A stretch of 58,069 nucleotides of DNA from Rhizaria sp. SCN 62-66 (taxonomy: Eukaryota): positions 1-58,069 of the forward strand of contig MEDY01000168.1 in NCBI GenBank assembly GCA_001724265.1, written 5' to 3'. Below, one piece after another: positions 1,763-55,553 of the stretch; positions within the stretch are counted from its first letter, which is position 1, and each line of letters starts with the position of its first letter. Made by a program: the position numbers and the translations under genes. The notes under the pieces were generated by a model. The model was not told the DNA's origin and made no database searches. It saw only the letters and a program-made list of their open reading frames with translations.

Positions 1763-1794
<32 letters not shown>

Positions 1795-7700: not shown

Positions 7701-10700
7701 GATTGTGTTGAGCCAAGAGAAAAATATCGCTCGATATAATGTACGATATAATTGAAAATGCAGTTGTTCTGCAAAAAATAGTGACGATTAAAAAAATATA
7801 GTTGTGAAATATCTCGTTTTGCGCAGAACTATGAGCGTACCTGTCCTCATACTCGCGCCTGGCGGCCTGCTCTGCGCGCTCCTGCGCGCGGCCCAGCAGC
7901 GCGATGAGGTCCTGCTTCTCGGCGATCTCGGCGCCAAGGCTGCGATGCGCGCGCGACAGCCGCTCCATGGCGCGCGAGTGGTCGAGCTCCTTGATGTGCG
8001 CGATCGTCTTGATTGCGCGCATGTCGTCCTCCAAATCGCTATCGCTATCGCCGTGGCTTGAGCTGGCACTGGCGGGGCTCTCGTCGCCGGAGGCGTTCTC
8101 ATGGTCACTGCCCGTCGCGTTCTCGTTGCTCTCGTCAACGATCGTGATCTTGGCCTTTGACTTGCTGCTCTTGCCGTGCTTCTTGGAGATTGACTTGGAC
8201 CTAGTCTGTAAAGCCTTGCCACCAGCGCTAATGCTGCCGGGGGTTTTGCGCTCAGCGCGCGTGTTGGCCGAGTCGACCAGCGCACGCTCACGCTCGTCCT
8301 CGACCTCAGAGTCGTCACTGTCCTCAGTTGCAGCGTCGTCCTCGTCCTCGTCCTCGTCGCTGCCGCTGTCTGAGGCCGCCTCGCTGTCGCTGTACTGCGC
8401 CACGGCGTTCGCCCTGCTGCTGTTGGCCCTGTTGCCGCCGGGCGAGGCCGCGGCGTGCACGTCTCTGCGCGACGCCGCGGGGCTGTTGCCCGCGGAGGGC
8501 GGCGGCGGCGGGATCTCGGTGCCCGCATCCACGACCAGCACTACGCCCTTGGGGCCGCCGCCGTGCACGGCTACGACACCGTCGTCCACGCTGCGAACCC
8601 CACCATTGGCGGCACTATTAACAGCGGAGTTAGCGGTCGCGTCGTCTTCGCTCTTGCCGTCACTCTTGCTCTTGTTCTTGCGGGACTTGCGCGACCGACG
8701 GGCCTTCTTTGGGCCACTCTCCACCTCCACATCAACGTCAGCGTCAGCGCCAGCGTCAGCATCGCCATCAGCGGCGGAGCTCTTTTTGCTGTTGTTCTTG
8801 CCCTTACTGCGGTCATTGCCGCCAGAGGCGGACTCAGGCTCCTCTGCGCCCGTAATGCGGCGAATCAGCGCCAGCGCCTCGCGTAGAGCCTTCTTTTTCC
8901 GGTCCAGCTTGATCTGCAACGCCGCAATCGTGCGCTGGTTGTCTTCCAACACGCCCAAGTCGCCGGGACTCAGCTCATCGCTATCGATCGCCCCAGCACC
9001 AGCAGCCGCAGAGTCTGCAGAGCCGGCGTCAGTCTTGCTCTCACTGTCCCCAGCGGCGTCTTTGCCGGCGCTCTTGGCGGCGCGCTGCAGCTTGAGCAGG
9101 GCCGCGTCGCGCTGCACCGTGGTACGCAGTAGCGTCTCGCGCGCGGTGGCCAGTTCGCCGGTCAGCTCGCTCACGCGCGCGCGCAGCGTGTCCAGTTCCA
9201 GCGATAGAGAGTAGAGCAGGGACCGGGACGCGGCCGCGCCGGCCCCCACCCCGGCCGCGGCCGCCGTGAGCTCCCCCGCGCCAGCACCGGCACCGGCCCC
9301 GGCCCCGGCCCCGAGGCCGGTCACGGCGCCGGTTCCAGAGGCGGCGCTGGTAACCGCGGGGAAGCCGCCGCGAGTGCCCGTGCTAACCAGACTGCCCGAC
9401 ACGACCACGCCGCCCGCCGCGCCACTGCTGGCGGCGGCGCCGGCTGCGGTTGCGGGACTGAGACTGCCGGCAGTCAGCGCGCCAGCGTTCGGGCGGGCGC
9501 CGGTGCCAGTGATCGGCCGGTCGTCGTACCTGTACGCGCCAGGAGTCGCGCCGGCACTCGTCTGAGGCCGAGAGGAGCTCGCGGCAGCGCCGGGCCTGGC
9601 GCCAGCGCTGGCGTCTGCGGCGAAGACGGGCAGCGGGAGCCCCGCTGCGGCGAGCGCGGCCTCGAGCGCGGCGACGCGCTCCAGCAGCTGCGCGGTGCGC
9701 ACGGCCACGGGGTCGCGCGCGATCACCGCGCGGTTGCGGATGTTGCGCGCGCGGTTGGCGTAAGCCAGCGTGTTGAGGCTCTCCTCCAGGTTGATGTCGG
9801 CGGGGGACACACAGGCAATCATGAGCGTCTTGCTGTTGCCACCTAGCGAGTCCTTGAGGATGCGGGTGATCTTGGACACGCGGTACGGCACGTGCTGGCC
9901 GCGCTTGCTGGGGTCGCCCAGCGCCGAGATGACGTTGCCAAGCGCCAACAAGCCGGTGTTGATGTTGATGGCCTCCTTCATGCGTTGGCCCTGTGAGGAG
10001 GTAAAGACAACAGTAAATGAAATAGTTCACGGATGAGATAATATTGCACATGAGCATATTAGTGAAAAATAAAAATAAGCTTCATTTAAATAGATCGCAA
10101 TACAGTTCAATTGAATGTTATCTTGTTCAAGCTTGGCGTACCTGTGCGCCTGTGCGTTTGAGCCTCTCTGAGCCCGCAAGGTCAACGAAGTGAAACTTTG
10201 ACTGGATAACCTCGTCCGCGACGGCGTCAAACACGCTCGCACTGAGGATACTACTGTTAGTACTACTCGCGCTCGCGGTAGCGGTGCTCAGGGCCGCGAG
10301 GGTGGCAGTAGCAGCAGCGGCGGCCGCAACGGCCTCGGTCTCGGCCGCAGTCGCAGCCTCCGCCGCCGCCGCGGCTGCCTCAGCCTCCTGCTGTTGGCCT
10401 GCATCGTCCGCCGCCGCCGCCGCCGCCTCGGCCGCCGCCTTCGCTGCCGCGCGCGCCGCCGCCGCCGTGGCCGCCGCCGCCGCCGCAGTCTCCCCCGCCG
10501 CCGCGGCGGCCGCAGCCGCAGTCGCGAGCGCGACAGGGTCGGCCGCGCCCGCTCCGCCGCTGCCGGTCAGCAGACTGGATGCGCCGCCGCCGTTGCCATT
10601 GCCGTTATTGCGCGGCAGCCTGCGCTTCTTCTGCGTGAGGTGGAGAGTGAAGATGGCGTGCGAACGCGAAGACGTCTCGTTCATGCGCGTGGGCGCCATC

Positions 10701-11689
10701 GCGCGCGCGGCCGAGCCCCGCTCAAGCGCGGCCAGCGCGGCGGCCGGGGAGGCCACGGTGCGCTCGAGCGCGTTGAGCACGAGTACGCGCCCGTCGGGGG
10801 TTTCGCGCAGCGACGGGCCGTGGCCGTGTGCGTGCGCGTAGGCGCTGCCGGCCGCGGCGCCGGCGTTGGCGCCGTATGCAGACAACGACGAGGAGGACGA
10901 TGACGAGGTGGGCGCGCGGTAAGTCGGGATTTTGCCGGCTAAGGCTGAGGCGGAGGCGGCGGCGCCGGCTGCGGACTCGGGCCGGGGGCCGAACTCGCCC
11001 GCGCCCGTGTCAGCGCCTGCGGAGTCGCCCGCAGCGCTCGCGTATGCCGCGCTGCTGCTGTTGTTGTTGTTAGCGTGCGAGAAGTCGGCGGGGAGCGGGG
11101 CGGCAAGCAGGTCGTGGATCTCCTCGCCGTAGATCTCGAGGAAGGTTACGTGTACACTGTAGGCCGTCTCGCGCGCGCGGGCCGCGATTTCGCGGAAGAC
11201 GTACTCGAACACGCGGGGCACAATGCCTAGCGCGTCGGGCGGCAGCAGCGCGGCGCCGCCGCCAGTGCCCATGGTGTAGGTCTTGCCGGAACCGGTCTGG
11301 CCGTAGGCGAGCACGGTGGCGTTGTAGCCCTCGATGAAAGCGTCAACGAGCGAGCGCACGCAGGTCGCGAACACGGCCGCCTGCGGGGACGACTCGGGCT
11401 GCACGTGGTCAAACGTGAATGTGCGGTCGGGGCCCAGGCGCACCGTGTCGGGCGTGGGGTGCGTGATGATGGGCGCGCACGATTGCTCCAGCGGCAGCAT
11501 CGGGCGCACGCGCACGCATACGCGCACGGACGAATCGTCACCGGGGACCGGGGTCGCGGCAGGCGCGCCGGGGCTGCTGAGGCTGCCGGGACCCACGGAA
11601 AAGGCGGGGGTTACGTCGCTAACGCTGGCACTTTCATTCGGTGTCGGGGGGTAGAGTGACAGCGGGGCTGAGGAAGGCTGGATACTCAT
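1278..11689 (-). CDS. Kinesin-4 family (KIF4/KIF21/KIF27-like) motor, ~3352 aa; exons 11689-10142, 9990-7841, 7638-1278
   Basis: Motor motifs [11 protein letters not shown]-loop [14 protein letters not shown], switch [13 protein letters not shown], switch [13 protein letters not shown]. Splicing restores [30 protein letters not shown] and [20 protein letters not shown] (kinesin-4-like). Coiled coils follow. Both introns are GTACGC...AG and keep frame. Stop is TAA. Confidence 0.93.
7639..7840 (-). other. Intron 2 of kinesin (202 nt)
   Basis: GTACGC...TTCTAG, AT-rich; phase-2 join AG|G = Arg links the two large ORFs. Confidence 0.88.
9991..10141 (-). other. Intron 1 of kinesin (151 nt)
   Basis: GTACGC...CTCACAG, AT-rich; removal restores the motor domain after switch II. 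Confidence 0.92.
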
Positions 11690-12748: not shown

Positions 12749-13459
12749 ATGGGCGGTGTCCTGAGCTGGTTCCAGCAACTCTTCTGGTCGAGCTAGATGG
12801 TACGTCAATCCTCTACCCATCCGCAAGTGAATCCACACGTTTCTCACCACAACTTTCCGTTCACCCTCTTTCAGCAGTGATATTCTTTTTCTCATCCCAC
12901 TTTCTTCCACACTATTCACACCTATTTTTTTTCTCCGCGCGCTGCGTTTTCACAGGAGATTGCCATTCTGGGCCTCCAGAACGCCGGCAAGAGCTCTTTC
13001 GTGCACGTCATCCAGAACGGCACCTTCGAGGACAACATGATCCCCACCGTGGGGTTCAACATGCGCAAAGTCAAGAAGGGCAAGGTCTCGATCAAGATCT
13101 GGGACATGGGCGGGCAGCGTCAGTTCCGCGGCATGTGGGAGCGCTACTGCCGCGACGTGCAGGTGATCGTGTTCGTGGTCGACGCGGCGGACGAGAAGGC
13201 GCTTGACGTCGCGCACGACGAGCTGCGCCGCCTGCTGGGCCACCTCGTGCTGGACCGCATCCCGCTGCTGGTGCTGCTGAACAAGAACGACAAGCCCGAG
13301 GCGCTGGAGCCGGAGCGCGTGGTGGATGTGCTGGAGCTGTCGAGCATCCGCGACCGCGAGGTGGCCTACTACTCCATCTCGTGCAAGAACATCGAGAACA
13401 TCGACAAGGCGCTGCAGTGGCTCACTGAGCACTCCAAGGGCAAGGACGCCGCCAAGTAA
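12749..13459 (+). CDS. ARL8: ARF-like GTPase ARL8, 184 aa; exons 12749-12799 and 12956-13459; in-frame TAG at 12794-12796
   Basis: Spliced product MGGVLSWFQQLFWSS[TAG]M|EIAILGLQNAGKSSF...MIPTVGFNMRKVKKGKVSIKIWDMGGQRQFRGMWERYCR...LNKND...YSISCK matches ARL8 signature motifs. Intron 12800-12955 is GTACGT...CACAG. Stop is TAA. Confidence 0.95.
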
Positions 13460-15918: not shown

Positions 15919-16329
15919 CTGGAATGAAGAATTATTAATGACAAAGTCATCTATGTAGCACTTTACGTGCGACATTGTCGGTATGTGCAATGCAAGAGAA
16001 CGTTATCTGGAGATATGTAGTGACAAAGTTGACCGAGCCGTTGAGCTGGGTCATGTTGGCGGGCGACTGCCAGAGAGACGACTGCTTTATTGAACATGAA
16101 GTTTTATCAGCACGAGCTCTTGTTCACTGGATTTAATCAAAATAGCTAACACAAAACCACATTTATTCTTTATTTTGCTTTTTAATTTGATCTTTGACGA
16201 TCGTGATCTTGCACTACAGACACTTCTTTCGTCCGCTTTTCCGAGACATCTCGATTCGTCTACTTGACAGGTCGACGACCACTCCCGCTCTTCCCCAGAC
16301 TTACTGTTTGTGCCGCTCGCGGTGCCCGC

Positions 16330-17364
16330 ATGTCGGCCACTTCCACGACTGGCGCGGCCCCCGCCGCTGCCGTGGCTCCCGTGGTGACCCACATCCAGGA
16401 GCCGCACATCGAACTGTCGAAGCTGCCAGTGTTCACGCCGACCGCGGTGGAGACGCTGCTGGAGCAGACGGGCCACAGCGGCACTGCCTACGACCCCGCG
16501 ATTGCGGATCTGCTCAACAACGTCTCCGCGCACTTTATCTCTACTCTGATGACGCAGGCCGCGTTCCTGACCAAGCACCGGCGCAGCGACACGGTCGAGC
16601 CACGCGACCTCCAGGTCGTCTTGGCCAAGTACTGGGGCAACGCCACGGTGCCCGGCCACTCGCCGTTCCGGTCCTCGCTGCACGCGGCGGCGGCAGAGCG
16701 CGCGCGCGTGCTGTCCGAGTCTGCGCACGCGGTGCGGCTGGCGACGCGCAACGGCACCGCGCTGGGGCAGACGGCGCAGACCCACATCGCGCTGTCCCAT
16801 GCCAGCGCGCTGCACGCCGCGCGCGCCGAGGCCGTGGTCCGCGCACAGCCGTCGATCCGCGAGGGGCTGGCCGACTACGACCAGGCCGCCGCGGGCGCGG
16901 CCGAGGACGCGGCGGCGGCGGGGGCCGGCGCGGCGGGCGCCAAGGGCGGCGCCGGGGGCAAGGGCGGGTCCAAGGTGGCGCGGTACGTGCCATATTTTAG
17001 TTCATTTCTCGTTGAGATCTTTGCTTATTGGATATGTAGTGTTCAGGATTTTGCTCTAATATTCCACTTTTTTAAATGTATACTCTGGTTCGACATGATC
17101 ATATCTCACATTTGTCTCCCTTCTCACTGTTTTGTTTACTCTCGTCATCTACAATCACGCTGAATCATCCGAAGGCCGGCCGGCGCGGCGGGCATGGGCG
17201 GCGTTAGCACGGCCCGCCACGGCCTTACACTCACCACTTCGGGCCCCTCTCCGGCGTCGTCGGCGGCGCTGGCCCCGATGGCAGCGACCGCGGCCGGCTC
17301 CTCAGGGAACAAGAAGATCGGACTCAGTCTATCGCTCACAAAGAAGAAGGAGGGCGCCAAGTGA
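16330..17364 (+). CDS. TAF12: TFIID subunit TAF12 (histone fold), ~280 aa; exons 16330-16982 and 17175-17364
   Basis: YDPAIADLLNNVSAHFISTLMTQAAFLTKHRRSDTVEPRDLQVVLAKYWGNATVPGH matches the TAF12 histone fold (HRKS.T.E..D.Q..L...W...IPG). Intron GTACGT...GAAG keeps frame. Stop is TGA. Confidence 0.85.
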
Positions 17365-17892
17365 GAGCTTTGTCACATGGAGGTTGCGCTAAGGTTTTCA
17401 TGAACATTGCGCTGCGAAGAGTTCGCTTCGAGGCTCTGCATTCTGTTTGAGGCGAGGCTTACTTACGCTTCAAGTTGCGAGCTGCGACTGCAAGCGAGCT
17501 CGGGCCAAGATACTCTTGGATAAAAGTGTAAATTTAAATACAACAACAATTTTGTGATCTTCTATCTTTTATGAATGGGCGGTATTCTGGTGTAAAGTCT
17601 GGATTGATGAGTATTCGTCTGCACAGTTGGCTATTGTGTTTGTGGTCGCTGGAGAGCAAGACAACAAATTGGTCCGATAGACATGACTTCAACCTCGTTT
17701 CTCTCTGGAACGTTCTATCACTACTTTGTCCGTGCTCGTCAACTTGGCAAGGTATATAATCAATTTTTATTATTCTTTTTTGCTATTTCTGGGCAGTGTA
17801 GATTCAAAGTCAAAGTTGGCCGAAGAGTTGACTTGAAGAAGACCTCTTGGTCTATCCACACTACAGGCTCTCGCCTTGTCCTCATCATCACG

Positions 17893-20800
17893 ATGTTTCA
17901 CCGCGGCATGTTTCCTTTGCAGGGACAGTGCGCAAGGATGGCTTTGAGCGCAACGGCACCAGCGTCAGCATCCACTGCAGCTGTCACAAGCTCTGCAATA
18001 GCTGTCGTGTCTCCCGCGTCGTCAGTCTCTTCCCCCACACTCTGCAACATGTCTCCCTCAATGCCAACAAACAGCGCAGCCACCAAGCACACACGTCAAG
18101 CTTACGATAATACCGCCGATAACTCTGCTGGTATAAGTTCGATAGGTGGTGACCGATGCTCTCAAGCTGGTTTCGCCTCTGCTCAGTCACAGGTACAGGC
18201 ACCGTCACAGTAGCCGCAACCGCCACCCGCAGCATCTGCACCGGCACCAGCGCTCCCCCGCGTCACCCTGCTAGGCTTTTCCGTACCCACAGGCGTTGTT
18301 CCAGGTGCCCGTGCAATGCATTTGCTTCAACGCTTTGCACAGCCCCGCTCCACTCCTTGTCCTGGCGCAGATGCAACCACGACATCAAACAGCAGTGCGC
18401 TTAACAGTGCAAATGCTGCCGCGGCGGGAAGCTGGTCCTGCGGCGTTGTCGGGTTGCGGCTTGATAGCAACGAGTACGTTCTCTGTGCGACGCTTGTGCC
18501 GTGCCCACAGTCACTCGTTCACAGTCACTCTGACACGAATGCGACCGTGCACTCTAGTGCAGCGGAGCACGAGCAAAGCACGAGGTTTTTGTGCTTGCTG
18601 ACGCGGTGGCGCTTGCTTCTTATTGCGCCACCGGGGTTCAACACACATGCAAACTCTTGCATGCCAATGCAGCGACAGTCACAATCGCCATCGCAACAAC
18701 AACAGGATCAGCACGCGCTGCTTCGTCCTCTCGTCCAGATCCCCACCAAGGCTCAAACACAGTCAATGGCGCTTGCCCATCAGCGCGAACAGCAACGCGC
18801 ACAACAACAAGCTCTCTTAACGCAACAAGCGCAGTGTGCGCGCGTGTGGTCCGAGCTGTGGCTTTCTACGGCCGTGTCTGCAGCCGTGACAGTAAACACG
18901 AGCGCCAACTCTTGCGACGAGAACTATGCTGCGAACAGTCGCTTCAGCGCGAGTAGTGGTGCTACAGGGGCTTTGCTTGGTGAGCTACGGGCAGTGCCTA
19001 CCAAGTCCCACACTCGCTCTAGCAATCTAAAGAACATGCACTCTTCACCCGGATCTTGCGCAAGCTCCGAATCAAGAGTTGATCTTAGCCACGGCAAGGC
19101 CAGCTCCGACTTAGCAGGTATTCAGTCGAGCAGACTTACACCTAACAATATTGTACCAACACTACAACGTAAGTAGCGCCCGCAACGGCCGTGTTATTGC
19201 GATGAATGCTGGACTCCATCCTTGCCGTCTCTCGGCACAAGTTTGTCGCAAGTGCCGTCTCATAACATCAGCGGAGGCTTATTGCCAGCACTTGCGCCAC
19301 ATGAGTCACATGACGTAGTCTCACTGAGATACACGGTTACCCCGACTGGTAATGTTGTGGTTAATATTAGCCTTGTTGCCTGCGACAAGACTGCTAGTGC
19401 TTGTTGCAGTGCGACTCCGAGGTTTGCGACGAAGACCTTGACGCAAACTCACGCAGATGATGAGAGCAGCAGCGTCCATGACTGCAGGGGCACGCATTTA
19501 GTCTACGCCTATGATTTGAGCAAAAAGAGTGAGCCGCATTAGCACCAGCCGCTAGCGCTTACCCTCACAGTCACCAGCGCTGCCAACCAAGCTCGCGTTG
19601 CGGTGCTTGCGGCTGAAGCTTCCGCGTACAGTGCCGGCTCGCTTTTCCCGCCGTCAACCAAGATGCACGCAACATTATTCCATCGTAGAAACTCTGACAT
19701 TCCCGGCAACCAGAGTGAAAATAACGCCGTCAACAGCAGCAGCATTAGTGTTTCTTCAGGGGCGATCAGTGTTTGCAGCAAGTTTGATGACAATGATGAC
19801 GGTGATAGTGCTAGCGACGAGTCTCGCGACGCCGATGACAGTAGCAACAATGAGAGCATTATCAGCGCTGACGAGAGCCCACAGGTGATTGTTTCACTTG
19901 TATTTAACACTGTTCCGCTGCCAGCGCTTGCGAATCCTCTCAACCAGCCAGCCGGTAATGCTGGTGACACTCGGTCGAGCGCAGCCACAGCCGCATCAGA
20001 GCGTGATGAAGCATTGGCCAAGAACAGCAGCAGTGTTTCAGAACTTGGTCAATTCCAACCCGTCATTGCCAAGGCCTCTTCTGCTGGTTTGTCCCATGCT
20101 GTGTCGGTGCGTACTTGGTTAGGCTCGTCACTTGGAAGCTGGGGTTGGTTATGCACTTTTAAGACTGCTGAGAATGCTCAATTCTTTTCAGACATCACAC
20201 AGGTTTGTTCAATCAACTTTCCGCGATAAAAACATGATAACATATAGGTTAAATAGTTTAATTCAGCATGTTTAAATTTACTTTCTCACGTCAATGTTTA
20301 TGTTCTGTTTTCGCTCAGCATTTGATCGACGCCTCAAGTCGCCGTGCAAGCACAGCCTCAGCCGCCCTGATCAGCAGCCTGCCTGCCTTCGTCCCACTCG
20401 TTGCGCCAGCGCTGCCCACAGTCACAAATGCCGTTTGCAGCTTGCATCACATGATGACGCATTCTCGGCCTGACGAGAGTCGAACTATTGCGTTGCAGGT
20501 TCAGCAAACCAAGAAGTACGAGCAGCGCAGACGCAGCACCAACCATCGAGTGCTCAAGTCAGATACTCACACGACTACTAAGAATAACAGCAGCAGCGCA
20601 GTTAGCAGTTTACACACAAGCAACAGCACTGATGGCGAGAAGCAATCATATGATGAGGAGACTGATGATGATGACGACGTTAAAACTCAACGCATGGCAA
20701 GCACCAAGCCCTCGCGTCCGCGTCCTGGCCACAGGCGCGTGCTGCCAATCCTAAGTCGTACTCAGTCTCCCGCTCTGAGTGACGACACGCTGGGCGAGTT

Positions 20801-23800
20801 CACACTCAGCGAGTCTGCACAATCTCAGCTTCAAAGCCAATTTTTCATGCAGCAACAACAGAGTCGCCTTATGTTGGCCGTGCTCGCAGCCGCCGGAATT
20901 GCGCCTGCAACGGCGCGTTCAGTCGCAGCCCATTCAGCAAAATTGCTTGCTGGCCCTGCGCGACTCGCAGCGGCCCCTGCAACGACCGTGCTGTTTGAAG
21001 GGTTTCTGTCGTATCGCAAAGCGGGGCGGTTCGCGAGCTGGCGCACGGGCTACGCTGTTGTGACCGCGTACGGCTGCGCTGTGTACGAGTCCGTTCCTCC
21101 AGCCACTCACTCCGCTTGCCGTATTTCTAGCAATCCACACACAAACGCAACTTGCGCCAAACAAGTGGTTGCTTCAAGCAGTGGCAGCGGTAAATGCGGG
21201 CAGGCCGACGTTGCCGACGCGGAGACAATGCATTACACGTGCGTTGGCTGCGGCAACACCTCATGCGCGACATTTCTTTCGAAGCACGGCATTAAAACAG
21301 ATACCACTAACGACACCGCTGTGTTTAATGCAGCAGGCCAAGACAGGGGTGCAAGTTTTGTGACAGCCCCCAAGCTCACAATGCCATCGGTGCGCGCTCT
21401 CCACGCTCAACACGTCCTTGCACAAACGCAGCAACTGCCACATCAGCAGCAATCTGCACTGCAGCTGCTTCAATCAAGCAGTACAGACAACGATGAGCGT
21501 ACTGCCTTGCCATGTATTGGCACTGTTGCGTTTACTGAACGTGACGTTGACCATCTTGTTGTTCTTGTCAACAATAGCACAGAAGCAAATATTGACGCAA
21601 CAACTCAATGTGAATCAGGTTCAGCAACGCAAAAGCAATTACACCCGCAGATACGGCCGCAATTGCAACAACAGCAGATTAAACCGAGACTATGGTGGGT
21701 GATCGAGCCCTACATTGTTGCGACGTCAGCAACGTCATCAGCGAGCGCGTACAACGCCGCAAAGCAGCAAACACAACCGCCAACGTTTAAGATGTTATCA
21801 CTACAACTGCACATTTGTCTAGCTCCAGCTGCCACAGACATTGTTGCCACCAGCGCTAAAGCAAGTGTTGCGCACAGCGGCAAGGCGCAGTGGCGTATGG
21901 TGTTTGAGACGCACTTAAGCTTCCCGACACCAAATGTGGCGGAGCAATGGCTGCGTGTGCTGCGCGTTGCTCTTAACCCACCGCCAGCGGCAGTCCCTTC
22001 TACCCAAGCTCCTGCAACCGAAGCACCCCACACAGTCAGCGTTAGTACTTCGCTTAGTCCCAACAAAGCTGAGGCTGGGAGGAGTTCACACGTTTTGCAG
22101 AGTCCAAACGCCGTCTTCAAGCCGATGGCCTTGGTGAACAACTGCTGGCACTCACGTCTTACGGTTCCTACTTACGCAAAAGCTTTGGTTGACACCGCAG
22201 CGCACACTGTGTCCAACATCATCTGCGGGGATGTCAGCACACTCGTTCCATCCTGTCATACATGTGCAGCTGCTATTGACGCATCACTCGCGCATGAACT
22301 ACGCCACGCTTCTTCTAACGACAACATCAACTCTTAGTCGTTAACACCAGTATCAAGCGCACAGTGCGCAGCTCAAAGTTGTTGCAGCAACGATGCAGCG
22401 TGGTTTGTTGCGTCCCCATCTCAGATAGCGGCGACACGTGGCGCTTTAGGCGGATTCGCTTTCACACCATACCTCACAGTTGTATGTTCTCAGTCTGCTT
22501 TGCGCACACGAATTTCTATCAGTCTCTCTGATTGTGATGAAAATTGCACTGACACTGAAGACAACAGTAGTAGTGATGCGAGCACATCTGACTCCGACCA
22601 AGAAAACGATAGCGAGAACGATGGTGACCAAGACGGAAACAGTCCACTTTCGCAACCGTCAGCACCTGCACTTGTTAACACACCGTCCGCTCTATTTGCC
22701 ACTGTTGTGCATCAAGCGCTAAGCTCGCCGCTAAATCACCATTTTGCTGCGCCGCAACCAAGTCCAGAACCGCCGGCGAATGAGCCTTTAGCGGCCGTAT
22801 CAACGCCAAGTTTGATATTGGCAACATTACCACCGCCCGGACTCGAGTCTTCAAAGCCGCACACACTGCACACGCTGGCTACACAAAAGAAAGCATTTGT
22901 TGGTGAGCCGGTAAGTCCGGACGGCGGGTACTGGGGACGCGCAACGCCGCAACAACGGCTATGGCAGCGGTGCGTGCAGCAAGATGCGCCTTTCAGGGCC
23001 TCACAAGTTCAGGATTCTCAGCGAGGGGTTATTGAAAGGGAGGTGAGTTCTGAGTATTCGGATACATTTAGTCAAAGCAGCACACACAATCAAGTTATTG
23101 AAGTCGTGCCAAAAAATGGTGATTGCTTGACAACTGTTGAGGCTAGCGGGCGTAGGCGAGCATTGTCCGATGTCACTTTTGCAGCCGTACATAGCCAGAG
23201 TCCACTGTCTCGTGAGTGTTTTCAGAGTGGCGAGAAGCAAGAGTATTCGCTGCCAACCGTGCACTATGGCGCAAACCGCGAAGTGGCGATCGTGAGTAAA
23301 CCGTTACAAAACCGACGAGCTCGCGTACCAGGTGGTGACACGTTTACACTCTCACGACCGAGTCACGAGGAACAACACGGCCATGTTGCGCCAGTACAGC
23401 CGCTGAGTTGCAAACAAACGCAGAGCGACGACGGGCCATCGCACAGTAGAATGTTACGTTCACAGTCTGTGACCGCTGTCGGCAACCTCAGCCACACTAG
23501 TGGACTCGACAGCGGTACAAACTCGTTGTGTTCGTCTCCTGCCGGGTCCACTGCGTCAAGCAGTATTCTGTCGCCGTCACAGTTTTATGAGCAAACTGCG
23601 TCAATGCTGCCCGCACTCTCATTGCCATCTGCACATCATCATCAGCACTACAATCAGCACGGATTTGACATCCAAAGGCAGCGGGACACCCAGCATCATA
23701 AGCTGCAGAACGAGCCTTGTTGCCGCACCATGATAGAGTTTGCGTCGCCGCCACCTTATCATGCACAGCTCTTCCACCGCCAGTCACATTACTCTCAGAA

Positions 23801-24740
23801 CCAGCAGCAACATAGTCCATACGACTATAAGTACAACGGCGCCACCCACTACCATCAGCAACACGTTCAGATGCACAGACACAGTTTTAGTGAAGGAGAT
23901 TCTCACCGCTTTCACAGCAACAACGGAGGCGCCAGTGCCAATCTTGACCAGCTGCTCGTCAATACCGCTGCTGCGCCACCGACGCCTCTTTACTGGCCAC
24001 AAGCGGGACCGATACAAAGTATTGACGTTGCTAATTACAGCCCACATATGTTTCATCAACACGAGCTGCTATGGGGCCCGATGCCCCAGCCTGTTAGCTT
24101 AGAGGCTGCGTCCCAGACGCCAGCGTGGACTCTCTATCCAGACCCCCGCAGCGTGTGGCATCAGCTCCCACCACCTGTGCCTGCTCGGACTCACTTTGCC
24201 CCCAGTCACTTGACCCACGGCCAGCCGGGAATCCAACAGTACAGTGCCGAGTGTAGTCCGTATGCGCTAAAAAATCACACTTACTCATATCATCATCAAC
24301 ATCAGCATCCACAACCATCGCCACACCATCTCAGCCTTGTCTCACCGACGCAGAGCGTTGCTCACAGTCAGATTCAGACTCCAAATTACGCGCACAGTCA
24401 CTACAGTGTCGGCAATGTGAACGCACGCTTATCACTTTGCGTAACTGTATTTGTCGGTGACACCACTGCAGCTACTACAGCGGCTGCAGCGCTTATGGCA
24501 CTACAAAATGCGGCATTGACAGCGCGCGAGCTGCTCGCAGTGGATGCTGAGACCGACAATGCGACGAGCTATGATGACATCAAAACTGATCCAAGTGAGC
24601 TACTTGCAACATTGCGTGAAAGACAGGCGGACCTCTGGGCTGACTGCACCTTAGCTTTGACTGACATTGACAGCACAAACAAGGTCAATGCGGCAGTCGT
24701 GTTACGAGTTGCACCAGAAACGCATCAGCCAGAAGTATGA
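17893..24740 (+). CDS. Large Ser/Gln-rich protein with a split PH domain, ~2243 aa; exons 17893-20202 and 20319-24740; four in-frame TAGs
   Basis: Six ORF-track pieces join into one frame, separated only by TAG (18211, 19174, 19540, 22335) and one phase-0 intron (20203-20318, GTTTGT...CTCAG). PH motifs LFEGFLSYRKAGRFASWRTGYAVVTAYGCAVYE and LSFPTPNVAEQWLRVLRVAL. Stop is TGA. Confidence 0.78.
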
Positions 24741-28152: not shown

Positions 28153-28463
28153 TTAGCCCCGCGCCCGCTTGGCCGGCCGGCCCGGCGGGCGCTTGCCTGG
28201 CGGGCGGGTAGGCTTGCTGTTCACAACATCCAGTTTCTCATGTTCCACAGCAGCAGCAACAGCCGCAGTTGCAGCCGTCGCCGCAGGGTTGGGGTGTTCG
28301 GTGGCCGCGGTGGCGTCGGCGTCGGCGTCAGCAGCGCTGTCGCCGGTATACTTGTCTTCGTCGTTGTCAATCATCGGACTGGAGTGGCTGCTCACCTCCG
28401 TCTCCGCCTCAGCCTCCGCCTCATCGTGGCTGTGGCCGTGGCCGAGGTAGCCGTCGTCGTGCC

Positions 28464-28495
<32 letters not shown>

Positions 28496-30510
28496 ACGAG
28501 GCCCTCGGCGTCGACCTCCGGCAGCAGACTGCCGCCGTCGTCATCTTCGTCCTCGTAGTCGCTCTCGCCGGCGTCGTTGCCAGCTTTGGCACTGACGGCA
28601 TTGCTAGCGTTCGAGTTCGACGCGGCGGCGGCGGCAGCAGCCATCGCCGCCGCCACGGCCGTCGCGGCCGCAGGGCTGTTGCTGGGGGCGTGGCCTTGAC
28701 CGTGACCGTGGCTTTGGCTGTGGTTGCGTGCGGCCGCGGCGACTGCGGCCTCGGCGGCCGCGGTGGCGGCGGCGATCACGGCACCGGGGCTGTTGTTGTT
28801 GCTGGGGTTGGCCGAGTACCCACTCACGTTGCCGCTGTTGCCGCTGTTCAAGCCCACACCTGCGTTGTAGGCGGTGGCGTGCGCGTTAGCGTGGCTGACC
28901 ACGCTCGGGCCGCTGCTGCTGTTGCTGTTGCTGTTGCTGTTGTTGTTGTTGTTGTTGTTGCTGGGCGGCGCGGGCTGGATAGCACCCGACTTAAGCAGCG
29001 GGCGCCAGATGCGGACGCGCGCGTTAATGAACCAGTAGTTGACCTGCTTGATGCTGAGCCCGGACTGCGCCGCCAGCTTGGCTTTCTCATCGTCCGTCGG
29101 GTACGGGTGCGAGAAGTGCTCGTAAAAGAAGTTGTTCAGAGTCGCCACGGCCTAATCAACACGAAAATAAGAAAAACAAATTTAAAGAAATATCGAAATG
29201 TGATATAATATAAAAAACTCAAAACATACGATACTCAAGAGTAAGGCTAGTGATCATAAGTCGACATACCTGACGCGAAAGCATCGCGCGCTTCAGCGAG
29301 CCGCCAGCGCCGCCGCCGCCGGCGACAGCGCCCTCGGCCTCAGCGGCGGCCGCGGCGGCGCGGGCACCGGCAGCAGCGGCGCCCGCGCTGATGTTGTTGG
29401 CCACGTTCACGTGCACGCGCGTGCCTGCGTGCGGTGACGGCACCGAGGGGTAGCGCACCTGACTCGCGGCCACAGCGGCGGCGGCCGCGGCCGAGTTGGG
29501 GTACTTGGCGGGCTGCCCAGTCAACGTCGCGGCGGCCGCGGACTGGGGCACGGGGACCTTGCCGGCTAACAGGGCCACGATGTCGGTCGCGCTCGCTGCC
29601 GAGGCTGGCACACCAGCGTTGACTCCACCGCTGGCGCTGCCGCCGCTGCCGCTGGCGCTGCCGTGGCTGAGTGCGGCCACTGCGTTGTTGAGGCGCGAAA
29701 AGAGGGTCGTGTCGGCCGGGTCCCCCATCTCAGCGCCGGCGCCGGCGCCCGCGGTCTGCGAAGGAGGCTGAGACTGCAGCAGTAGCTGGTCCCCCGCGGC
29801 GACGGCAACGGCTGCCTTCGCGGCGGCCTCGGCCTCGGCCTTGGCCGCCGCGAGCGCCGCCATGCGCGCGGTCGTGGTGCCAGCGGGCCGACCAGACTGC
29901 CGCGGCAGTCCCGCCGCGGCGCCCGAGGCCAGTTGCAGCGGCACTGAGACGCTGGCAGCGCCCGCGGCCGCCGCGGCGGTGGCTCTCGCGAGCGCGCTCG
30001 CGCGCAGCAGGAGCTTGCTTTTGGCGGCTTTGCCCTTTGTCAGCGCGCCGCGGGCGAGCGCGCGCATCTGCGCTTGCGCCTGCGCCTGCGAGGAGGCGCC
30101 GCCGCGCGGCAGCGTCTGCAGCTGTGTGTTCAGCTGCGCCTGCTGCTGCGCACCGAGCCCTAGCGCCTGCGCCTGCGATTGCTGGCCCGCGCGCTGGATC
30201 TGCGCGTTCAGGGTCGCGCGGGCCTGCGCCTGCGCCTGCGTCTTGAGACGCGCCTGCACCTGCGCCTGCGCCTGTGCCTGGGCATGTGCCTGGGCCTGCG
30301 CCTGCAGTTGCAGCTGGGCCTGAGCCTGAGCCTGCGCCCGCGCCTGGGCCTGGGCGATTGCCTGGGCCTGCGTGATGGCTTGGTACTGCTGCAGAGCGAG
30401 GAGTTGCTGCTGTTGCTGCTGCAGCTGCAGCTGCTGCTGGCGCTGCTGCTGCTGGAGCAACTGGTCCTGCTGCTCGTTGTATTGTTGCTGTTGTTGCTGC
30501 TGCTGGAGCA

Positions 30511-30546
<36 letters not shown>

Positions 30547-31233
30547 AGAGGTTGCCCGGGGCGGCGACGCCGGCGCGCCCCGCAGCATTGACAGCCGCGA
30601 CGCCGTTGGGACCGGCACTCATGTGAGGGCTACCGCCGGTGGCGTTGGCAATGCTGTTGTTGCCGTTGCCGTTGCTAGCCGCACTGCCGCTGCTACTGTT
30701 GTCGGCCGGGGTGAACGCGAAGGCAACGACGCGCTGCAGCTGCTGCAGCGTCTGCGTCAGCGTGGCCTGCTGCTGCTGCAGCTGTTGCACCGCGGCGACC
30801 ACGATCGCTGGCGTGCCAGGGACGGAGCCGGCGAGCGTGAGCAGCAGTTGCTGCTGGTGCGTGATCTGGGTCAGCTGCGCAAACGCCTGGCTGGCCGCAA
30901 CCTGCAGCGCGGTGACAATGACCGCGTCGTGTGCGGTGTAACCGCCGCCGCCGCTGCCGCTGTTGCTGCCGTTGTTAGAGCTCGAGCTGTTGTTGCTGCC
31001 GCTACCTGGCGCGGCAGCGGACTGATTAGTCATGTTGCCGGCCGCGCCGGAGTTGGCGAGCGTGTTCAGGTTGGTCGGCGGGGTGCCACAACTGCCGCCC
31101 CCACTGTTGTTGTTGTTGTTGCTGTTGCTGTGGGTTTGAGCGAAGGCCTGGGCAGCGAGCGCAGTCAGGCTCGCCGTCGTGTTGCTGTTGCTGTTGTTGT
31201 TGTTCGTGTTGTTGGCCACTGGGCCGCGACCAA

Positions 31234-31264
<31 letters not shown>

Positions 31265-32440
31265 TTGCAGTTGATGCAGGATCAGCTGCTGTTGCTGCTG
31301 CGGTGACAGTTGCGACAGCTGCGCCAACAGCCCCGCCGCGCTGGCGCCGCCGCCAGCGAGCGCGGCGGCCACGGCGGCCGCGTTGCCGTTAGTCAAACCG
31401 GGAGCGCTGTTGTTACCGGTACCGTTGCCGTTGCCGTAGTAGTAGTTGTTGTTGCTGAGCGTCGTGACCAGAGAGCTCGGCGTCGTGAGCGTAGAGCTGG
31501 GAGCTGACTGCCCAGACTGCCCAACACTCGCTGAGCTGGCTGAGAGGGCCGAGGGCAAGGACAGATGCGCCGAGGCGGAGAGCGGGGGCGCAGCGGCGGC
31601 CAGCAACAGCGCGGAGGCCACCGAGGCCGAGCCCGCTCCCGTCGAAGACGACGACGGGATCGCAGACAGGACGGCAGACGGCAGCGCCGAGGCGGAGGGC
31701 ACTGCGGTGAGGATCGCGGGGGACACGCCCACCGACGCGGCGCCGTCCAGCAGAGCTCCGACAGCGGCACCGTTGCCGGCGACAGAGCCAGAGCCAAGGC
31801 CGGCAGCGTTAAGCAGACGCGGAGAGACGTTCGAGGCGCTGCTACCGAGGCTGCCGAGTCCGACGTTGTTGGCGGCGCCACTGAGGAGCCCGACGCTGTT
31901 AGCGCTGGTGTTGGAGCGCGTAAGCGTGGCGAGCGTGTCGGCGAGCCGCGCGCGCTTGGCAATCTGCTCGATGTTGGCGGCGTCGTCTGCGGCTGAGGGG
32001 ACGAAGGAGCCCGGGACGGGAGGAGCGGAGGAGAAGGAGCCTGAGGACCCCGCGGAGGCCGAGTAAGGGGACGCGGGCACTGCGCCGCCGCTGCCGGACG
32101 CCGCCCCGGCGTTACCAGATGCAGGGGCGGGCGCAGAGGTGAAAGCGTTGGCAGCGCCGTTGGCGGCGGCGGCGGCGGCGAGAGAGGTCATTGAGGGCGT
32201 GAACGGATTCAGGGATGGGCGTGATGACGTGGCGGCGAGAGAGGAAAGCGCAGAGTCGGGCGTCAGTGCAGCGGGCTTGACAGAGACGGCGCTGTGCTGC
32301 AGGCCAGGGGTGCCGCCGCTGTCAGATGATATATCGGCCGGGGGGCGCGAGAAGAGCGGCGCGCGGGCGGCGGCGGGCGAAGGCGGGCTGAGGGAGCTGT
32401 CGGCATAAGGTCGCGGGGTCAGGTGGGGGGGCGCAGCCAT
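28153..32440 (-). CDS. TALE-class homeobox transcription factor, ~1389 aa; exons 32440-29270 and 29151-28153
   Basis: Splicing of intron 29152-29269 (GTATGT...ATTAG) gives [61 protein letters not shown], with the TALE HPYP loop and WFINAR helix 3. Poly-Q and QA tracts. Stop is TAA. Confidence 0.93.
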
Positions 32441-50207: not shown

Positions 50208-53200
50208 TTACATGATGGTGCACGCCTTGCACGCGTCGTCATCAGTGATATCAATGACATTGCCGTCGGCGTCGACCTAGGGGACGCCACGGAACGTCGA
50301 CGGCTCGTCCTCGTTCATCTCCTTGTCCAGACACTTGATCTCGTCGTCGTCATCGTCGTTGCCGTTGGTGCTTTTGTCGCTCTTGTCGTCGTCCGCAGTG
50401 TCGCCGTCACCGACGCTCGCGGTGGCGCTTGCAGCAGCAGTCGAGTTCTCGTCATCGCTGTTGTTGTCGTCCTTACCGCTCTCGCTCCTGTTGCCGGCCT
50501 TCTTCACGACGCTGTCGCCCTGGCTCGTGCTGTCGTCGGTGTCTGTGTCGGCGGCGGCCGTCGTACTCTCGGCGCCCTCAGTCGCAACGCTGTCGGCCTC
50601 GCTATCCTTCTTCTTTCTAGACTTGTCGTCCTCCTTTTTGTCTCTAGAGAGGATTCCGCCCAGAATGCCGCCGTTGGCCTCGGCCGCTGCAGCCGCGACC
50701 TCCGCTGGGTCGCTGTCGGTGCGCGCGAGGAGTCTCTTGCCCTCGCCTTCGCTCTCGCTCGCGTCACCATCGCTCCTCTTGGGCGTCACCTCGGACCTCT
50801 TGGGCTTCGAGTTGGCCTCGGGCACGGGCACGGACAGGGGGACAGGCTCGATGGACAAAGGCTCAGCATCAGCGGCAGCAGCGGCCGCAGTAGCGGCGGC
50901 GGCTGCCTCCGCTGCGGCCTTGAACGCTTGCTCCTCGGCAGCCTTTTCAGCAGTAACCTTCTCCGCAGCGGCCTTCCCGGCAGCCTCAGCGGCCTTGTCA
51001 GCGGCGGCCTTGTCAGCGGCGGCCTTGTCAGCGGCGGCCTTGTCAGCGGCGGCCTTGTCAGCGGCAGCCTTCTCTGCAGCGGCGGAGGCCTGAGCGGCAG
51101 CAGCCGCAGCTTCGGCCTCAGCATTTGCTTTCGCCTCCGCCGCAACCTTGGCCTCAAGCTCCGCTGCAGCAGCGGCAGCAGCCTCGGCCTCAGCCTTGGC
51201 CTTCGCCTCAGCAGCAGCCTCAGCAGCAGCGTCGGCATCAGCCTTCGCCTTGGCGTCGACCTCGGCATTGGCAGCAGCCGCCGCGGCCGCAGCGTCGGCC
51301 TCCGCCTTGGCGTCGGCGTCTGCCTTGGCCTTGGCTTCCTTGGCGGCCATAGCGGCGGTCGCCGTCGCAGCGTCGGCCTCCTTGGCCGCGCGCTCCTTCT
51401 GCTTCTCCTTGTCCGCGCTGCTGACGCTCTTGGCCTTGTCGTCCTTGCTCTCCTTAGCCTTGCCCTTGCCCTTCTCCTTGTCGTCAGCCTTGTCGCTCTT
51501 GGCCGCGACATTCTTGCCCTTGCTGCTCTTGCCCTTAGCGCTGCCCTTCTTGCCCGCGCCGTCGCCCGCGCCGTCGCCGTCGTCGCCGTCGTCGCCGTTA
51601 GCGGCACCGGCGGCAGCGTCGTCCTTGGCGGCCGCAGCGGCCACAGCGGCGGCGAGCGCCGCGGCTTCCTGCGCGTTGATCTCCGGCGGGGGCGCCGAGG
51701 GCGACACGGGCCCGCGCTCTGTCAAGGCGCTCGCGATGCGGAAGTCGTTGTCCTCCTCCTCTTCGGCGCCCTCGGCTCCGGGGTACTCGTCGTCGTCGTC
51801 GTCACTGAAGCCGGCCCCGGCGAGGATGCCGACGCGGCCCGCGGGCACGGCGCGCGCGGTCGCGGCGACGACGCTGGGTGCGTCGTGGAAGTCCTGCTCC
51901 GCCGCACCGTCGCCGCGAGACACGGAGAGCGTCGTGTCGTCGTTGTCGTCATCCAGCAGCGCGGCTGCCGCAGCCGCGGCGGGCGCCACGCGCGCGGTCG
52001 GCGCCAGCGGCTGGGGCGACTCCACGGGCGCGGGCTCGGCCGCAGCAGCAGCAGGGACAGCAGTTGCAGCAGTGGCAGGGGCCTTGCCCTTGCCCTTTGC
52101 GGGCTTCTTGCCGCCCTTAGCACCCTTCTTGGACGTCTCGGCAGCGGCGGCGGCAGCGGGCTCGGGCTCCGGCTCGGCGGCAGCAGCGGCGACGGCTGCG
52201 GCCTCAGCCACGTCATCCGGCACGGTCGAGGAGCCATTAATGGCAGTGCCCGTCTTGCCCGAGGCGGCGGCGCCCTTCTTGCCCTTAGCAGCGGCAGCAG
52301 CGCCCTTCTTGCCCTTCTTCGCGGGCGTCGCGGCCGGCTCGGGTGCGGCGGCTTCAGGGACCCGGGCCTCGTCGTTTTCGGCGGTGAGAACGTCCGCGGC
52401 GACGACAACGGCAGCGTCTGAGCCTGAGAATCTCTTGATGCTGTCGACCGGCTCCTCGCCAGTCTTGACCTCGGCCTCTGCCTCGGCCTCGGCGTCAGCG
52501 CTGGCGTTGGCGTTGGCCGCGTTAGCGGCGGCCATGACCGCGGCGACGGTGACACCCGCCGCGGCGACGGCGGCTGCGTCAGCAGCCTCGTCGCCGCCGC
52601 GCGAGTTGTTGTAGTGATCCCGCAGGGACTGGCCGGCGTCGTCGCCGTCGCCGCTGCCGCCGCCGCCGCCGCCGGGCTTGACGGGGGAGGAGTTGGGCGA
52701 GTTCTGCAGCGCGGCCGAGGCAGCAACCTCGGCCACGTCGGCAGACAGCGGGACTATAGCAGCCGGGGAGCCGCCGGAGGTCACGGCGGCGACCGGGACG
52801 GGGGCGGGCAGCACAACGTCGTCCACGGTGGACTCGGAGGCGGGCGCAGCGTCAGCGTCGGGCATGGACGCCGCCGCAGCAACGGCCACGTGCTCCTCCT
52901 GACGCTGCTGCCTGTCGTTGTCTCTCGCATCGGCCTTGGGCTCGGCGTTGCCAGAGTTGCCGGACAGCGAGGACGAGTACGACGACGCCTTGTCCTGGCT
53001 GCTGTGTGGCGCGAAGCTGCCGCCGCCGAGCCGGAGCCGGGGCTCGCCGGAGCGCGGGCTGTAGGCGTCGTCGTCAGCCTCGCTAATCGAGAAGTCTGTC
53101 TCGTCGCCCGCGCTGAGCCCGTCGTCGCCGCTCGCGCGGCCGGTGAGCCGACGCAGGCGGCGGCGGCTCGCGCTACTGCGGTGCGCGTCGGGCGTCCCCA

Positions 53201-55553
53201 CGCCGTCATCGTCGTCATCGTCGTCGTCGTCGTACTCGCCGTAGTCGCGGTCTCTGTCGTCACCGTCGGTGAGGTCCTTGCCTTCGTCCTCGCCGTCCCC
53301 AGCGCCCCGCGCGGCCCGGGCGGCGGCGCGCGCGGCCTTGGCTGCGGCGCGCTCCGCCGAGCGCTCGGCGGCGCGGGGCGAGGCTGCCGACACGGGCGCA
53401 ATGTGCTGCTCGAGCGGCGCGTAGTACTCGTGCAGCAGCGCGAACTTCTGGCCCGCAATACGCAGCAACGTGCCGTCGTCGGCGTAGCGGTGCACGACCA
53501 CGGCCGTGGGCAGCCCCGCGGCGACGAGGTGCAGCGCGCGGCGGTACTCGATGTACGTCACGTAAGATGGCACCAGCGCGAAGGCGTCCTCGTCGGGCTC
53601 CGCGTCCGGCGCCGCGGGTACGCGGTTGTTGCTGGCGTCCAGCACCGTCGCCGAGGTGACCGAGACCTGGGTGTAGTCCTCGGCGCAGATGGCGTTGGAG
53701 CAGGCCGCGGCGAGCAGCGTGAGCGCGCGCGTGAGCGCGGGGCCCCCGCCCGGCAGGATGCACACCGTCTCGGCCGGGTGGTCGAGGTTGAACACAACGC
53801 AGTCGTGCGCGATGCCGTAGCGCGCCTGCGTGTAGACGTTGTAGAAAAAACCGTCGTGCGCCAGCGTCAGGTGGCTCGCGCGCAGAGTGCGGTACACCGC
53901 GCGGTCGTCGCACGTGACCGGGAACAGCGGCCCGCCCTGCGTCTGCCCCAGCGCGGGCAGCGCGGCCGCCAGATGCACCACGCCGACGCGGAAGTCGCAC
54001 AGGCGCAGTGCGGAGTCCTTGCTGATTTTCTTGGACTCCTTCTTGGCGAGCGCGGTGGCGTCGGCCTTGCTCATGCCGCTGCCCATGCGCGCGGGCCCCA
54101 TGTCCTGCGTGGAGTCGACGTACATGACGTTCTCGGAGGACAGCCACGCGTTGTAGGCCAGCTCCGCCGGCTGCGACGCCGCCTTGACGACGACCGCGAC
54201 AGAGTCGGCGTCGGCGGCGCCGCTCTTGCCCTTACCGGACGTGGACCCGGCCGCGAGCGTGCCCTTGGCGACAAGCGCGCGTTCGGCGGCGAGCATGGCG
54301 CGCACGGCGTTCTTGCCCTTGCGCATCGCAGCCGCCTGCGCCTGCAGCCCGAGGACCCAGAGAGCAGAGATGCGGTGCGAGCCGGCCTCGAGCGTGAGGC
54401 AGCCGTCGTGCGGCACGCGCCCGCGGTCGGCGCGGGAGCCGAAGACGAGGGACAGACAGTTGCCGTCCGTCGCGTCGTCGGCCGCAAAAGACGCGAACAC
54501 AGGCTCGGTGCGCTTGCCGACTTCGAGGAACTTGACGGCGACGACGGAGAAGCACTCGATGCCGTCAGCCGTGGCCAGGAAGGCCGGGTCCGCGGGCGAC
54601 CAGCAGAGCCAACCGTACTTGTCGCCTGCGGTGAGCCCGGTGACGTTGGCGCCGTCGGACATGATCGAGTCGGCGTCGGGCCCCGCCAGCTCGACCTCTG
54701 CGTCTGCGCGGCGCGACTCGAGGAACAGCGCAGCGTTCGCGCGCGGGTCGATCGTGGACAGGAACAGGTAGCCGGGCGTGCGCGCGCACAGAACGGGCTC
54801 CAGCGACGACGGCAGCGCCGTATCGGGCTTGCCGGAGAGGCGCTCGCGCATGGTGAGCGCCTGGAGGTTGGCCTCGGAGGCGGCGGCGGCCACCTCGGTC
54901 TGGCCGGCCTCAGGCGCGTGCGGCGCGAGGTGCCGCGGCGGCGGGTATCCGCGGGACTTGCTATAGATGTCGTAGCGGAACATGTAGCAGCCGCGCAGAA
55001 GCGCTGCGACCGCTTCGGCGGGGGATATTGCGCTATCATCGCCGGCGAAAAGGTGGTGGAGCTCCTTGACCGAGGCCGACTCTGGGATGCGGCTCGCGAA
55101 GGGCTCTTCGAGCAGGCGCTTGGAGGAGTGCTCGAACACGTTCATGGTGTAGATGCGGAGGTCAAAAAGCCAGCGCTGGATCGTGTCGGTCTTAGCGCGG
55201 ATGACGAGGCCTGGAGAGTCGGGGTCTGTGGTGTTAGTGACAAGCATTGCTGTCTCGCCGCGGCTCAGCGACGTGAGGCCCTCGGGGGCCGGGCGCTTCT
55301 TATTAGTGACCCAGCTCTTGGGATCGGCGTCGGTAACAATGCGGGCGTAGATAAGAGGCACGCTGAAGTCGGGAATGTCGAGTCCGATAGCCTCCTTGCT
55401 AGGAAACATTGCGAAACGAGACCGGATCGGATCATTGTGAACAACTTGGATGGCGAAGTAGCGTTCCTTGAACTTAGTGCCACCAAAAAAGCCCTTTGAC
55501 TTGGCCGGAATGGAGAGAACACCCTCCTTTACGGTCTCATAGCCAGATGCCAT
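50208..55553 (-). CDS. PH-domain protein with Ala/Lys/Glu-rich tail and C-terminal CaaX (CTIM), ~1781 aa; in-frame TAG at 50277-50279
   Basis: N-terminal PH (VKEGVLSIPAKSKGFFGGTKFKERYFAI...IQRWLFDL) and a second PLC-type PH-like block (LEVGKRTEPVF...CLSLVF...LTLEA...LWVLGLQ). The frame continues past TAG as VDADGNVIDITDDDACKACTIM-TAA. Confidence 0.85.
50987..51070 (-). repeat. Coding 15-bp tandem repeat (~5 copies) encoding AAADK
   Basis: (gcggccttgtcagcg)n on the + strand. Confidence 0.9.

Follow-up and report, generated by a model that had tools for sequence, protein, structure and literature searches.

The gene at positions 17893-24740 of contig C168 raises the question of how a reading frame of more than two thousand codons can carry four in-frame TAG triplets and no TAA or TGA before its end. 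This contig, 58,069 nucleotides (nt) long and hereafter called the window, belongs to the eukaryotic assembly G000 (34.9 Mb in 714 contigs). We propose that UAG has come to mean glutamate in the nuclear code of this organism, apparently a rhizarian, with UAA and UGA kept as stops, and that the TAGs of the gene are sense codons. Judging from sequence comparisons, we give this reading a probability of roughly 0.78. The cause of the read-through lies outside the window, in a transfer RNA (tRNA) with the anticodon CUA and an altered release factor eRF1.

An earlier note on this DNA described one frame of about 6.7 kb broken only by four TAGs. The four TAGs and the lack of TAA and TGA stand, but the single frame does not: a genomic frame at 17611-20229 holds the first three TAGs and closes at a TAA (20227), another in a different phase (20262-24740) holds the fourth and ends at the terminal TGA, and a 116-nt intron lies between them. 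The ATG at 20268, listed as an open reading frame (ORF) start, sits within this intron. The quoted TAG contexts (APSQ-PQPPP, LQRK-RPQR, EPH-HQP, INS-SLTP) and open linkers are confirmed. Spliced from the ATG at 17893, the frame runs for 2,243 codons with four TAG, no TAA and no TGA, whereas the base composition predicts about 58 TAA and TGA together and about 29 TAG; the remaining five frames of each exon contain many stops. The true start of the gene is uncertain, the frame being already open from 17611, and the sequence leaves room for a possible upstream intron at 17752-17866.

Four of the 16 listed runs holding the stretch were compared, at low depths. A contig of run X5, a complementary DNA (cDNA) library although automatically flagged as probably DNA, omits precisely the 116 nt of the intron, and three short contigs of the poly(A) RNA run X10 match exon 2. 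The gene is therefore transcribed and spliced. The X5 contig carries TAG 22335 unchanged and stops 18 bases beyond it, the threshold for bridging being 31 bases, and the TAGs at 18211, 19174 and 19540 lie outside the RNA contigs of the compared runs. The earlier caveat that TAG 19174 overlaps a donor-like GTAAGT at 19169 is right about the overlap, but the motif is probably no splice donor because the sequence 3' of it is open and has 56% GC, unlike the real intron with 30%; the span 19006-19256, which includes both, has no coverage in the four runs. The 11 strain differences listed for the gene comprise five synonymous, five non-synonymous and one TAG/CAG change at 19540, and none of these 11 is an indel or a new TAA or TGA. 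The gene is thus spliced, transcribed, free of such lesions between strains and, as shown below, part of a genome that reads TAG as sense, which bears out what the earlier note implied, namely that TAG is read through and that the locus is neither a decaying pseudogene nor interrupted by introns at its TAGs; the note put forward neither a mechanism nor an amino acid. In our reading this is a genuine protein-coding gene under weak constraint.

Outside this gene, UAG is almost certainly a sense codon as well, and UAA and UGA are retained as stops. In 998,628 sampled bases, about 3% of the genome, restricted to GC-rich genes and including some overlapping loci and some picked for TAG, we followed each stop triplet preceded by 60 codons of strongly coding character. 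Over the next 30 codons, coding continued past 0 of 53 TAA, 0 of 42 TGA and 10 of 11 TAG, where one of the ten continuing TAGs looks intronic and a few TAA and TGA are intron read-ins. The eleventh TAG is that of the window gene at 50208-55553, in which 22 codons lead on to a TAA; its CKACTIM end, which we take to be a CaaX-like terminus, is similar to the ends of other sampled genes (CAIM, CIVM, CTIM). TAA was the commonest stop, and no gene ending in UAG was found in this sample. Cruder continuation counts, to which antisense frames and introns add noise, gave 32 of 128 for TAG, 6 of 139 for TGA and 1 of 103 for TAA, and a looser filter passed 46 TAG, 22 TGA and 12 TAA. A long-frame control failed to tell the three codons apart (30 TAG, 49 TAA and 52 TGA counted as internal) because the frames extend beyond true stops into untranslated regions (UTRs).

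In-frame UAG is also found in conserved genes, namely those of eRF1, seven kinases (six exonic family matches plus the Nek7-like kinase L129) and a UBE2J1-like protein. Of 142 protein kinase matches, nine contain TAG only, one TAA only and four a mixture; six of the nine TAGs are exonic and three are intron acceptors. A stop occurs in 0 of 149 WD40 matches and in 1 of 43 DEAD matches. When 30 TAG windows were compared with Pfam, only the UBE2J1-like one had its TAG clearly within a conserved domain core. Three further TAGs were rejected as intron acceptors: those of dynein L045 and DEAD-box L187, and that at 7639-7641 in the kinesin gene of the window, which is hence no stop codon. The eRF1 family search (PF03463) gave two genes, one of them pelota-like, which leaves a single true eRF1. 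Metagenome contig L188, possibly from the same source as G000, carries an identical eRF1 including the TAG (100% over 1,626 bases), and the metagenome scan returned no close relative's eRF1 DNA other than L188.

Under the standard code, the locus would be a young pseudogene, or its TAGs would be edited or spliced out or be assembly errors. Such an account could draw on the G+C content at third codon positions (GC3) of the gene, 0.51 versus 0.75-0.89 in true neighbouring ORFs, on the lack of a homolog for the stretch searched, on TAGs several times denser than in the sample on average and on the GTAAGT at TAG 19174. It would, however, require a broken sole eRF1 and would leave both the CUA tRNA and the missing UAG gene ends unexplained, while adenosine-to-inosine editing would produce Trp, the residue with the lowest Pfam score (see below). 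Since TAG 22335 is kept in the cDNA-library contig, the eRF1 TAG recurs in L188 and the strain differences include no indel, we regard this account as largely refuted and very unlikely.

Which amino acid is inserted is suggested first by the tRNA. Among 20 tRNAs compared, tRNA(CUA) is closest to the genome's own tRNA-Glu(CUC), with 47/73 identical positions; Asp, Gly(CCC) and His reach 39-40/73, the Gln tRNAs 33/73 and 29/74, and tRNA-Leu 36/83. The variable arm of tRNA(CUA) is short. The UCCCA/UGGGA acceptor stem and the T-arm are common to tRNA(CUA) and tRNA-Glu. Minimum free energy folding was uninformative (z -1.5), and the cloverleaf comes from ARAGORN and hand pairing. A wider pattern for CUA and UUA anticodons gave 28 matches (the tRNA(CUA) itself, 10 that overlap tRNAs with other anticodons, one checked before and 16 that are not tRNAs), without a UUA tRNA or a second CUA tRNA, although such searches would miss tRNAs with introns or an atypical shape.

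Constrained protein sites point in the same direction. The TAG of eRF1 aligns to human E107, in a column with Glu in 99, Asp in 13, Val in one and Gln in none of 113 homologs. In kinase L129, the TAG of YYAP-TAG aligns to the Glu of the Nek7 APE motif, and this column holds Glu in all 26 other motifs of the 27 at the sampled loci, with Gln in 0 of 26; ten of 11 APE-pattern matches were discarded as chance. The Pfam bits summed over eight TAG sites are highest for Glu (655.5), followed by Gln (650.2), Lys (649.8), Ser (644.5), Tyr (638.0), Leu (635.3) and Trp (633.0), and the best residue is Glu at five sites, Lys at two and Gln at one. From this evidence we conclude that UAG probably specifies Glu. 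As a separate observation, L129 (L129:1279-2250, C182) has a polyQ-rich insertion of about 130 residues right after the APE motif.

Several observations weigh against this conclusion. Only eight conserved-domain sites were scored, and the APE site, itself found through a Glu-motif pattern, provides 3.5 of the 5.3 bits separating Glu from Gln, leaving 1.8 bits without it. The UBE2J1-like column is mostly Asp or Asn in 118 matched homologs (Glu 7, Gln 0). The nearest eRF1 relative, P0004, has Val at E107, and the site is therefore relaxed in this lineage. Strain X7 reads CAG at TAG 19540. Opposite TAG, paralogs have Gln at least four times (in one ubiquitin-like copy and three other pairs), Asp at least twice (one of these also Gln), and Lys, Thr and Trp at least once each, and NEK1 has Gln at the TAG site of kinase L103. 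The flanks of 41 TAG sites (46 minus nine judged intronic by eye, plus the gene's four) give log-likelihoods of 13.1 for Gln and 13.1 for Tyr versus -3.6 for Glu. No RNA contig of the four compared runs bridges a TAG by at least 31 bases on each side. Finally, G000 resembles a metagenome bin, and the placing of tRNA, eRF1 and gene in one organism is inferred from their shared codon style.

The strain difference at 19540, the Gln-bearing paralog pairs, the Gln-like flanks and the Gln of NEK1 would all fit a UAG read as glutamine, as in Iotanema spirale and NCBI table 15, through tRNA(CUA) or another tRNA. We nevertheless consider this improbable: the sole CUA tRNA found is of the Glu type, the 16 further pattern candidates being no tRNAs, and Gln is absent from the eRF1 (0/113), APE (0/26) and UBE2J1 (0/118) columns. 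Moreover, one transition turns CAG into TAG, and TAGs derived from Gln codons would therefore be expected in loosely constrained proteins even if UAG means Glu. In our reading, the codon from which a TAG arose shows at sites under loose constraint, CAG being one transition away, and what the TAG means shows at constrained sites and in the tRNA. The Gln-looking TAG contexts of the earlier note are accordingly only partly informative.

The eRF1 sequence differs from its 113 homologs by T32S (Thr in all 113), G57S (Gly in 112), T58K (Thr in 112), L126M and K130Q, and it retains E55, L69 and S70. P0004 also has T58K and L126M, without T32S. The stop-recognition motifs of eRF1 are GTS, (TAS)NIKS and YxCxxxF (PMC5304391). 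In yeast the T32A substitution is lethal (PMC4381064), and in human eRF1 it confers specificity for UGA (PMC4482090). We infer that T32S may weaken the recognition of UAG alone. The UAG of the eRF1 gene itself falls at E107, in the region of the stop-binding pocket, where replacement by alanine reduces read-through in yeast (PMC4381064). Leaky decoding of UAG could possibly establish a feedback loop through this codon.

UAG is rare, with at most 30 occurrences in 106,206 codons of the long frames of the window, C4 and C42, of which roughly one third are intronic or lie in UTRs, and it would make up less than 1% of Glu codons. Twenty of the 30 are in frames with GC3 below 0.7, seven at 0.7-0.8 and three above 0.8. 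With its GC3 of 0.51, the gene therefore falls in the class where UAG gathers, and its UAG density is several-fold above even this low-GC3 class. We suggest that a C36-to-A change turned a tRNA-Glu(CUC) into tRNA(CUA), which would be charged with glutamate and would read UAG but not UAA, and that the five substitutions in eRF1 would have abolished or weakened its recognition of UAG. The rarity of the codon would fit recent capture or inefficient decoding, and UAG would therefore gather in weakly biased genes such as this one, many TAGs presumably arising from CAG. On balance it seems likely, if less firmly than the codon meaning itself, that an undescribed code has been caught early in a GC-rich wastewater rhizarian, with UAG as Glu, UAA and UGA as terminators, one tRNA-Glu(CUA) gene and an eRF1 whose own synthesis depends on reading through a UAG at a stop-binding-pocket residue.

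Decoding could also be ambiguous, UAG being read mainly as Glu, with occasional mischarging by Gln or with eRF1 still terminating at some UAGs, in which case the UAG of eRF1 could serve as negative feedback on termination. GlnRS, the glutaminyl-tRNA synthetase, can mischarge amber suppressor tRNAs. The mixed Glu and Gln signals in Pfam sums, paralogs and flanks would agree with this, as would the single CUA tRNA gene, the E55, L69 and S70 still present in eRF1 and the contrast between the UAG frequency above and the 6.5-31.8% of synonymous codons reached in published UAG-only codes (PMC11687900). However, the stop-test sample contained no TAG-terminated gene, and, given how often UAG occurs, its presence in eRF1 by chance would not be improbable; we hold ambiguous decoding to be as doubtful as glutamine. 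We therefore retain UAG as Glu.

The spliced product has about 2,243 amino acids, among which Ser, Ala, Gln and Pro are abundant. Neither exon 1 nor exon 2 has a Pfam match, and eight sub-stretches plus 20940-22019 gave weak Pfam matches only (E >0.01). The stretch 20940-22020, compared with a set of 1.84 billion proteins, returned a single, 100% identical protein, and a second copy of the gene was not found in the genome. By eye, and without Pfam support, a PH-like domain interrupted by long inserts is possible at 20970-21983 (+ strand), where a poor single-sequence model (mean predicted local distance difference test score 33) has a strand-strand-helix end. With low confidence, the most likely role of the protein is that of a disordered scaffold or adaptor.

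Table 1 Positions of the gene, its TAGs and other features (window coordinates unless a locus is named)
Feature	Position	Strand	Remarks
Coding exon 1, low-complexity orphan gene	17893..20202	+	770 codons counted from ATG 17893
In-frame TAG 1	18211..18213	+	APSQ-x-PQPPP; bridged by no compared contig
In-frame TAG 2	19174..19176	+	LQRK-x-RPQR; GTAAGT overlap; outside coverage of compared runs
In-frame TAG 3	19540..19542	+	EPH-x-HQP; CAG (Gln) in one X7 contig, depth 4
Spliceosomal intron	20203..20318	+	GT..AG, 116 nt, 30% GC; in-phase join of two frames
Coding exon 2	20319..24740	+	1,473 codons + TGA 24738
In-frame TAG 4	22335..22337	+	INS-x-SLTP; X5 contig keeps TAG
eRF1 gene with in-frame TAG	L032:1177-1830 (G000:C63)	-	TAG inside N domain; ends in TAA
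tRNA with anticodon CUA	L068:1490-1562 (G000:C84)	-	Pattern search and ARAGORN; T-run downstream
Neighbouring gene with read-through TAG 50277-50279	50208..55553	-	22 coding-like codons, then CKACTIM-TAA
KIF4/KIF21-like kinesin gene, multi-exon	1278-11689	-	
Arf-family GTPase exon	13001-13459	+	
TAF12	16264-17364	+	
TALE-class homeobox gene	28153-32440	-	
LRR protein	33610-44472	+	3,620 codons, single frame
SAM-domain protein	45534-46562	-	
Small-subunit (SSU) rRNA gene	L123:1501-5945 (G000:C706)		4.4 kb; four group I introns

Runs containing the stretch come from bioreactors, wastewater and activated sludge. In a FastTree phylogeny of RPC2 (118 sequences), the organism falls among the 15 members of a clade that also includes Lapot gusevi and Nonionella stella (support 0.997). 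We take both to be Rhizaria, and this one-gene placement, on a long branch, suggests that the organism is a rhizarian. The eRF1 tree was of no help in placing it, nor was the polyubiquitin junction as a rhizarian marker, no tandem copies being assembled. Relatives in public metagenomes (P0004, P0127, P0128, P0129) show 86-88% identity over the eRF1 and RPC2 queries. The SSU rRNA gene on contig C706, which may belong to the same organism, is very divergent, and its first insertion (about 2090-3000 of L123) appears by eye to contain a His-Cys-box homing-endonuclease-like stretch. In sainouroids the 18S genes are extremely divergent (PMC6133090), and Rosculus occurs abundantly in sewage (PMC8827150). 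No named sainouroid was among the sequences retrieved; the divergent C706 18S and the wastewater habitat are only suggestive of Sainouroidea (Helkesida), as a lead.

Other loci show further features. A diverged ubiquitin copy (L137:1498-2090, C681) has TAG where its parent has CAG and is fused to a further domain, which in our view looks like the intramolecular chaperone of phage tail fibres (peptidase S74). Monomeric ubiquitin genes with an MSMQIF start and a GG-HPQ-stop end (L135, L142; C3:10811-15519) occur in tandem with internally deleted copies; their extra Ser presumably recalls the cercozoan polyubiquitin insertion. A divergent kinase family (L107, L108 and L109, on C148, C49 and C9) has several in-frame TAGs per locus, each kinase being followed by a region of repeats that look SEL1-like by eye.

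If the reassignment is correct, it would call for a new translation table and represent a second change of code, arising independently, within Rhizaria, and should the organism be a sainouroid, two meanings of UAG (Leu and Glu) would coexist within one small clade. With candidate tRNA and eRF1 both in hand, the loss of UAG alone by a release factor becomes directly testable. The rarity of UAG suggests early codon capture in a GC-rich genome, and standard annotation will truncate genes, including that of eRF1, in this and related wastewater protists. In the open literature searched (subscription papers and theses were outside its scope), we found neither UAG as Glu where UAA and UGA still terminate nor any non-standard rhizarian code besides that of exLh. 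UAA and UAG nearly always shift meaning jointly; in the sources cited here, the few exceptions assign UAG to Leu, Gln or Ser, or alter both codons.

The closest parallel is exLh, a rhizarian of the Sainouroidea in which UAG specifies Leu, UAA and UGA are stops and a CUA tRNA is predicted (Panek et al. 2017, PMC5304391). G000 would likewise be a rhizarian nuclear genome in which UAG alone is reassigned, with UAA and UGA kept and a CUA tRNA. In G000, however, Leu scores 20 bits below Glu and tRNA(CUA) is of the Glu rather than the Leu type; the reassignment would therefore be independent of exLh. The release factors differ too, exLh having L69A, whereas G000 retains L69 and carries T32S and T58K. 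UAG means Gln in Iotanema spirale, Hartmannula sinica, Trochilia petrani and Protocruzia tuzeti, Leu in three TARA phyllopharyngean metagenome-assembled genomes and Ser in Scotinosphaera (PMC11687900). These codes likewise decouple UAG from UAA through a single CUA suppressor tRNA type, but they belong to other lineages, use UAG far more often and assign another residue if Glu holds here; a Gln-type tRNA(CUA), as expected for the Iotanema type, was not found in G000.

Glutamate itself has precedents, known only from codes in which UAA has changed too. In Oligohymenophorea sp. PL0344, UAG is Glu through CUA tRNAs derived from tRNA-Glu, as proposed here, but UAA is Lys and UGA the sole stop (PMC10553269), whereas in the G000 sample UAA is the most frequent stop, and the pattern searches yielded no UUA tRNA. 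Peritrich ciliates read both UAA and UAG as Glu (PMC11687900), as does Blastocrithidia, with UGA as Trp and UAA serving also as stop (PMC12153298). With these, G000 would share a tRNA-Glu(CUA) and the depletion of the reassigned codon in highly biased genes; it differs in that UAA is not read as Glu and UGA terminates, and its coding DNA is GC-rich, whereas the model for Blastocrithidia invokes AT pressure.

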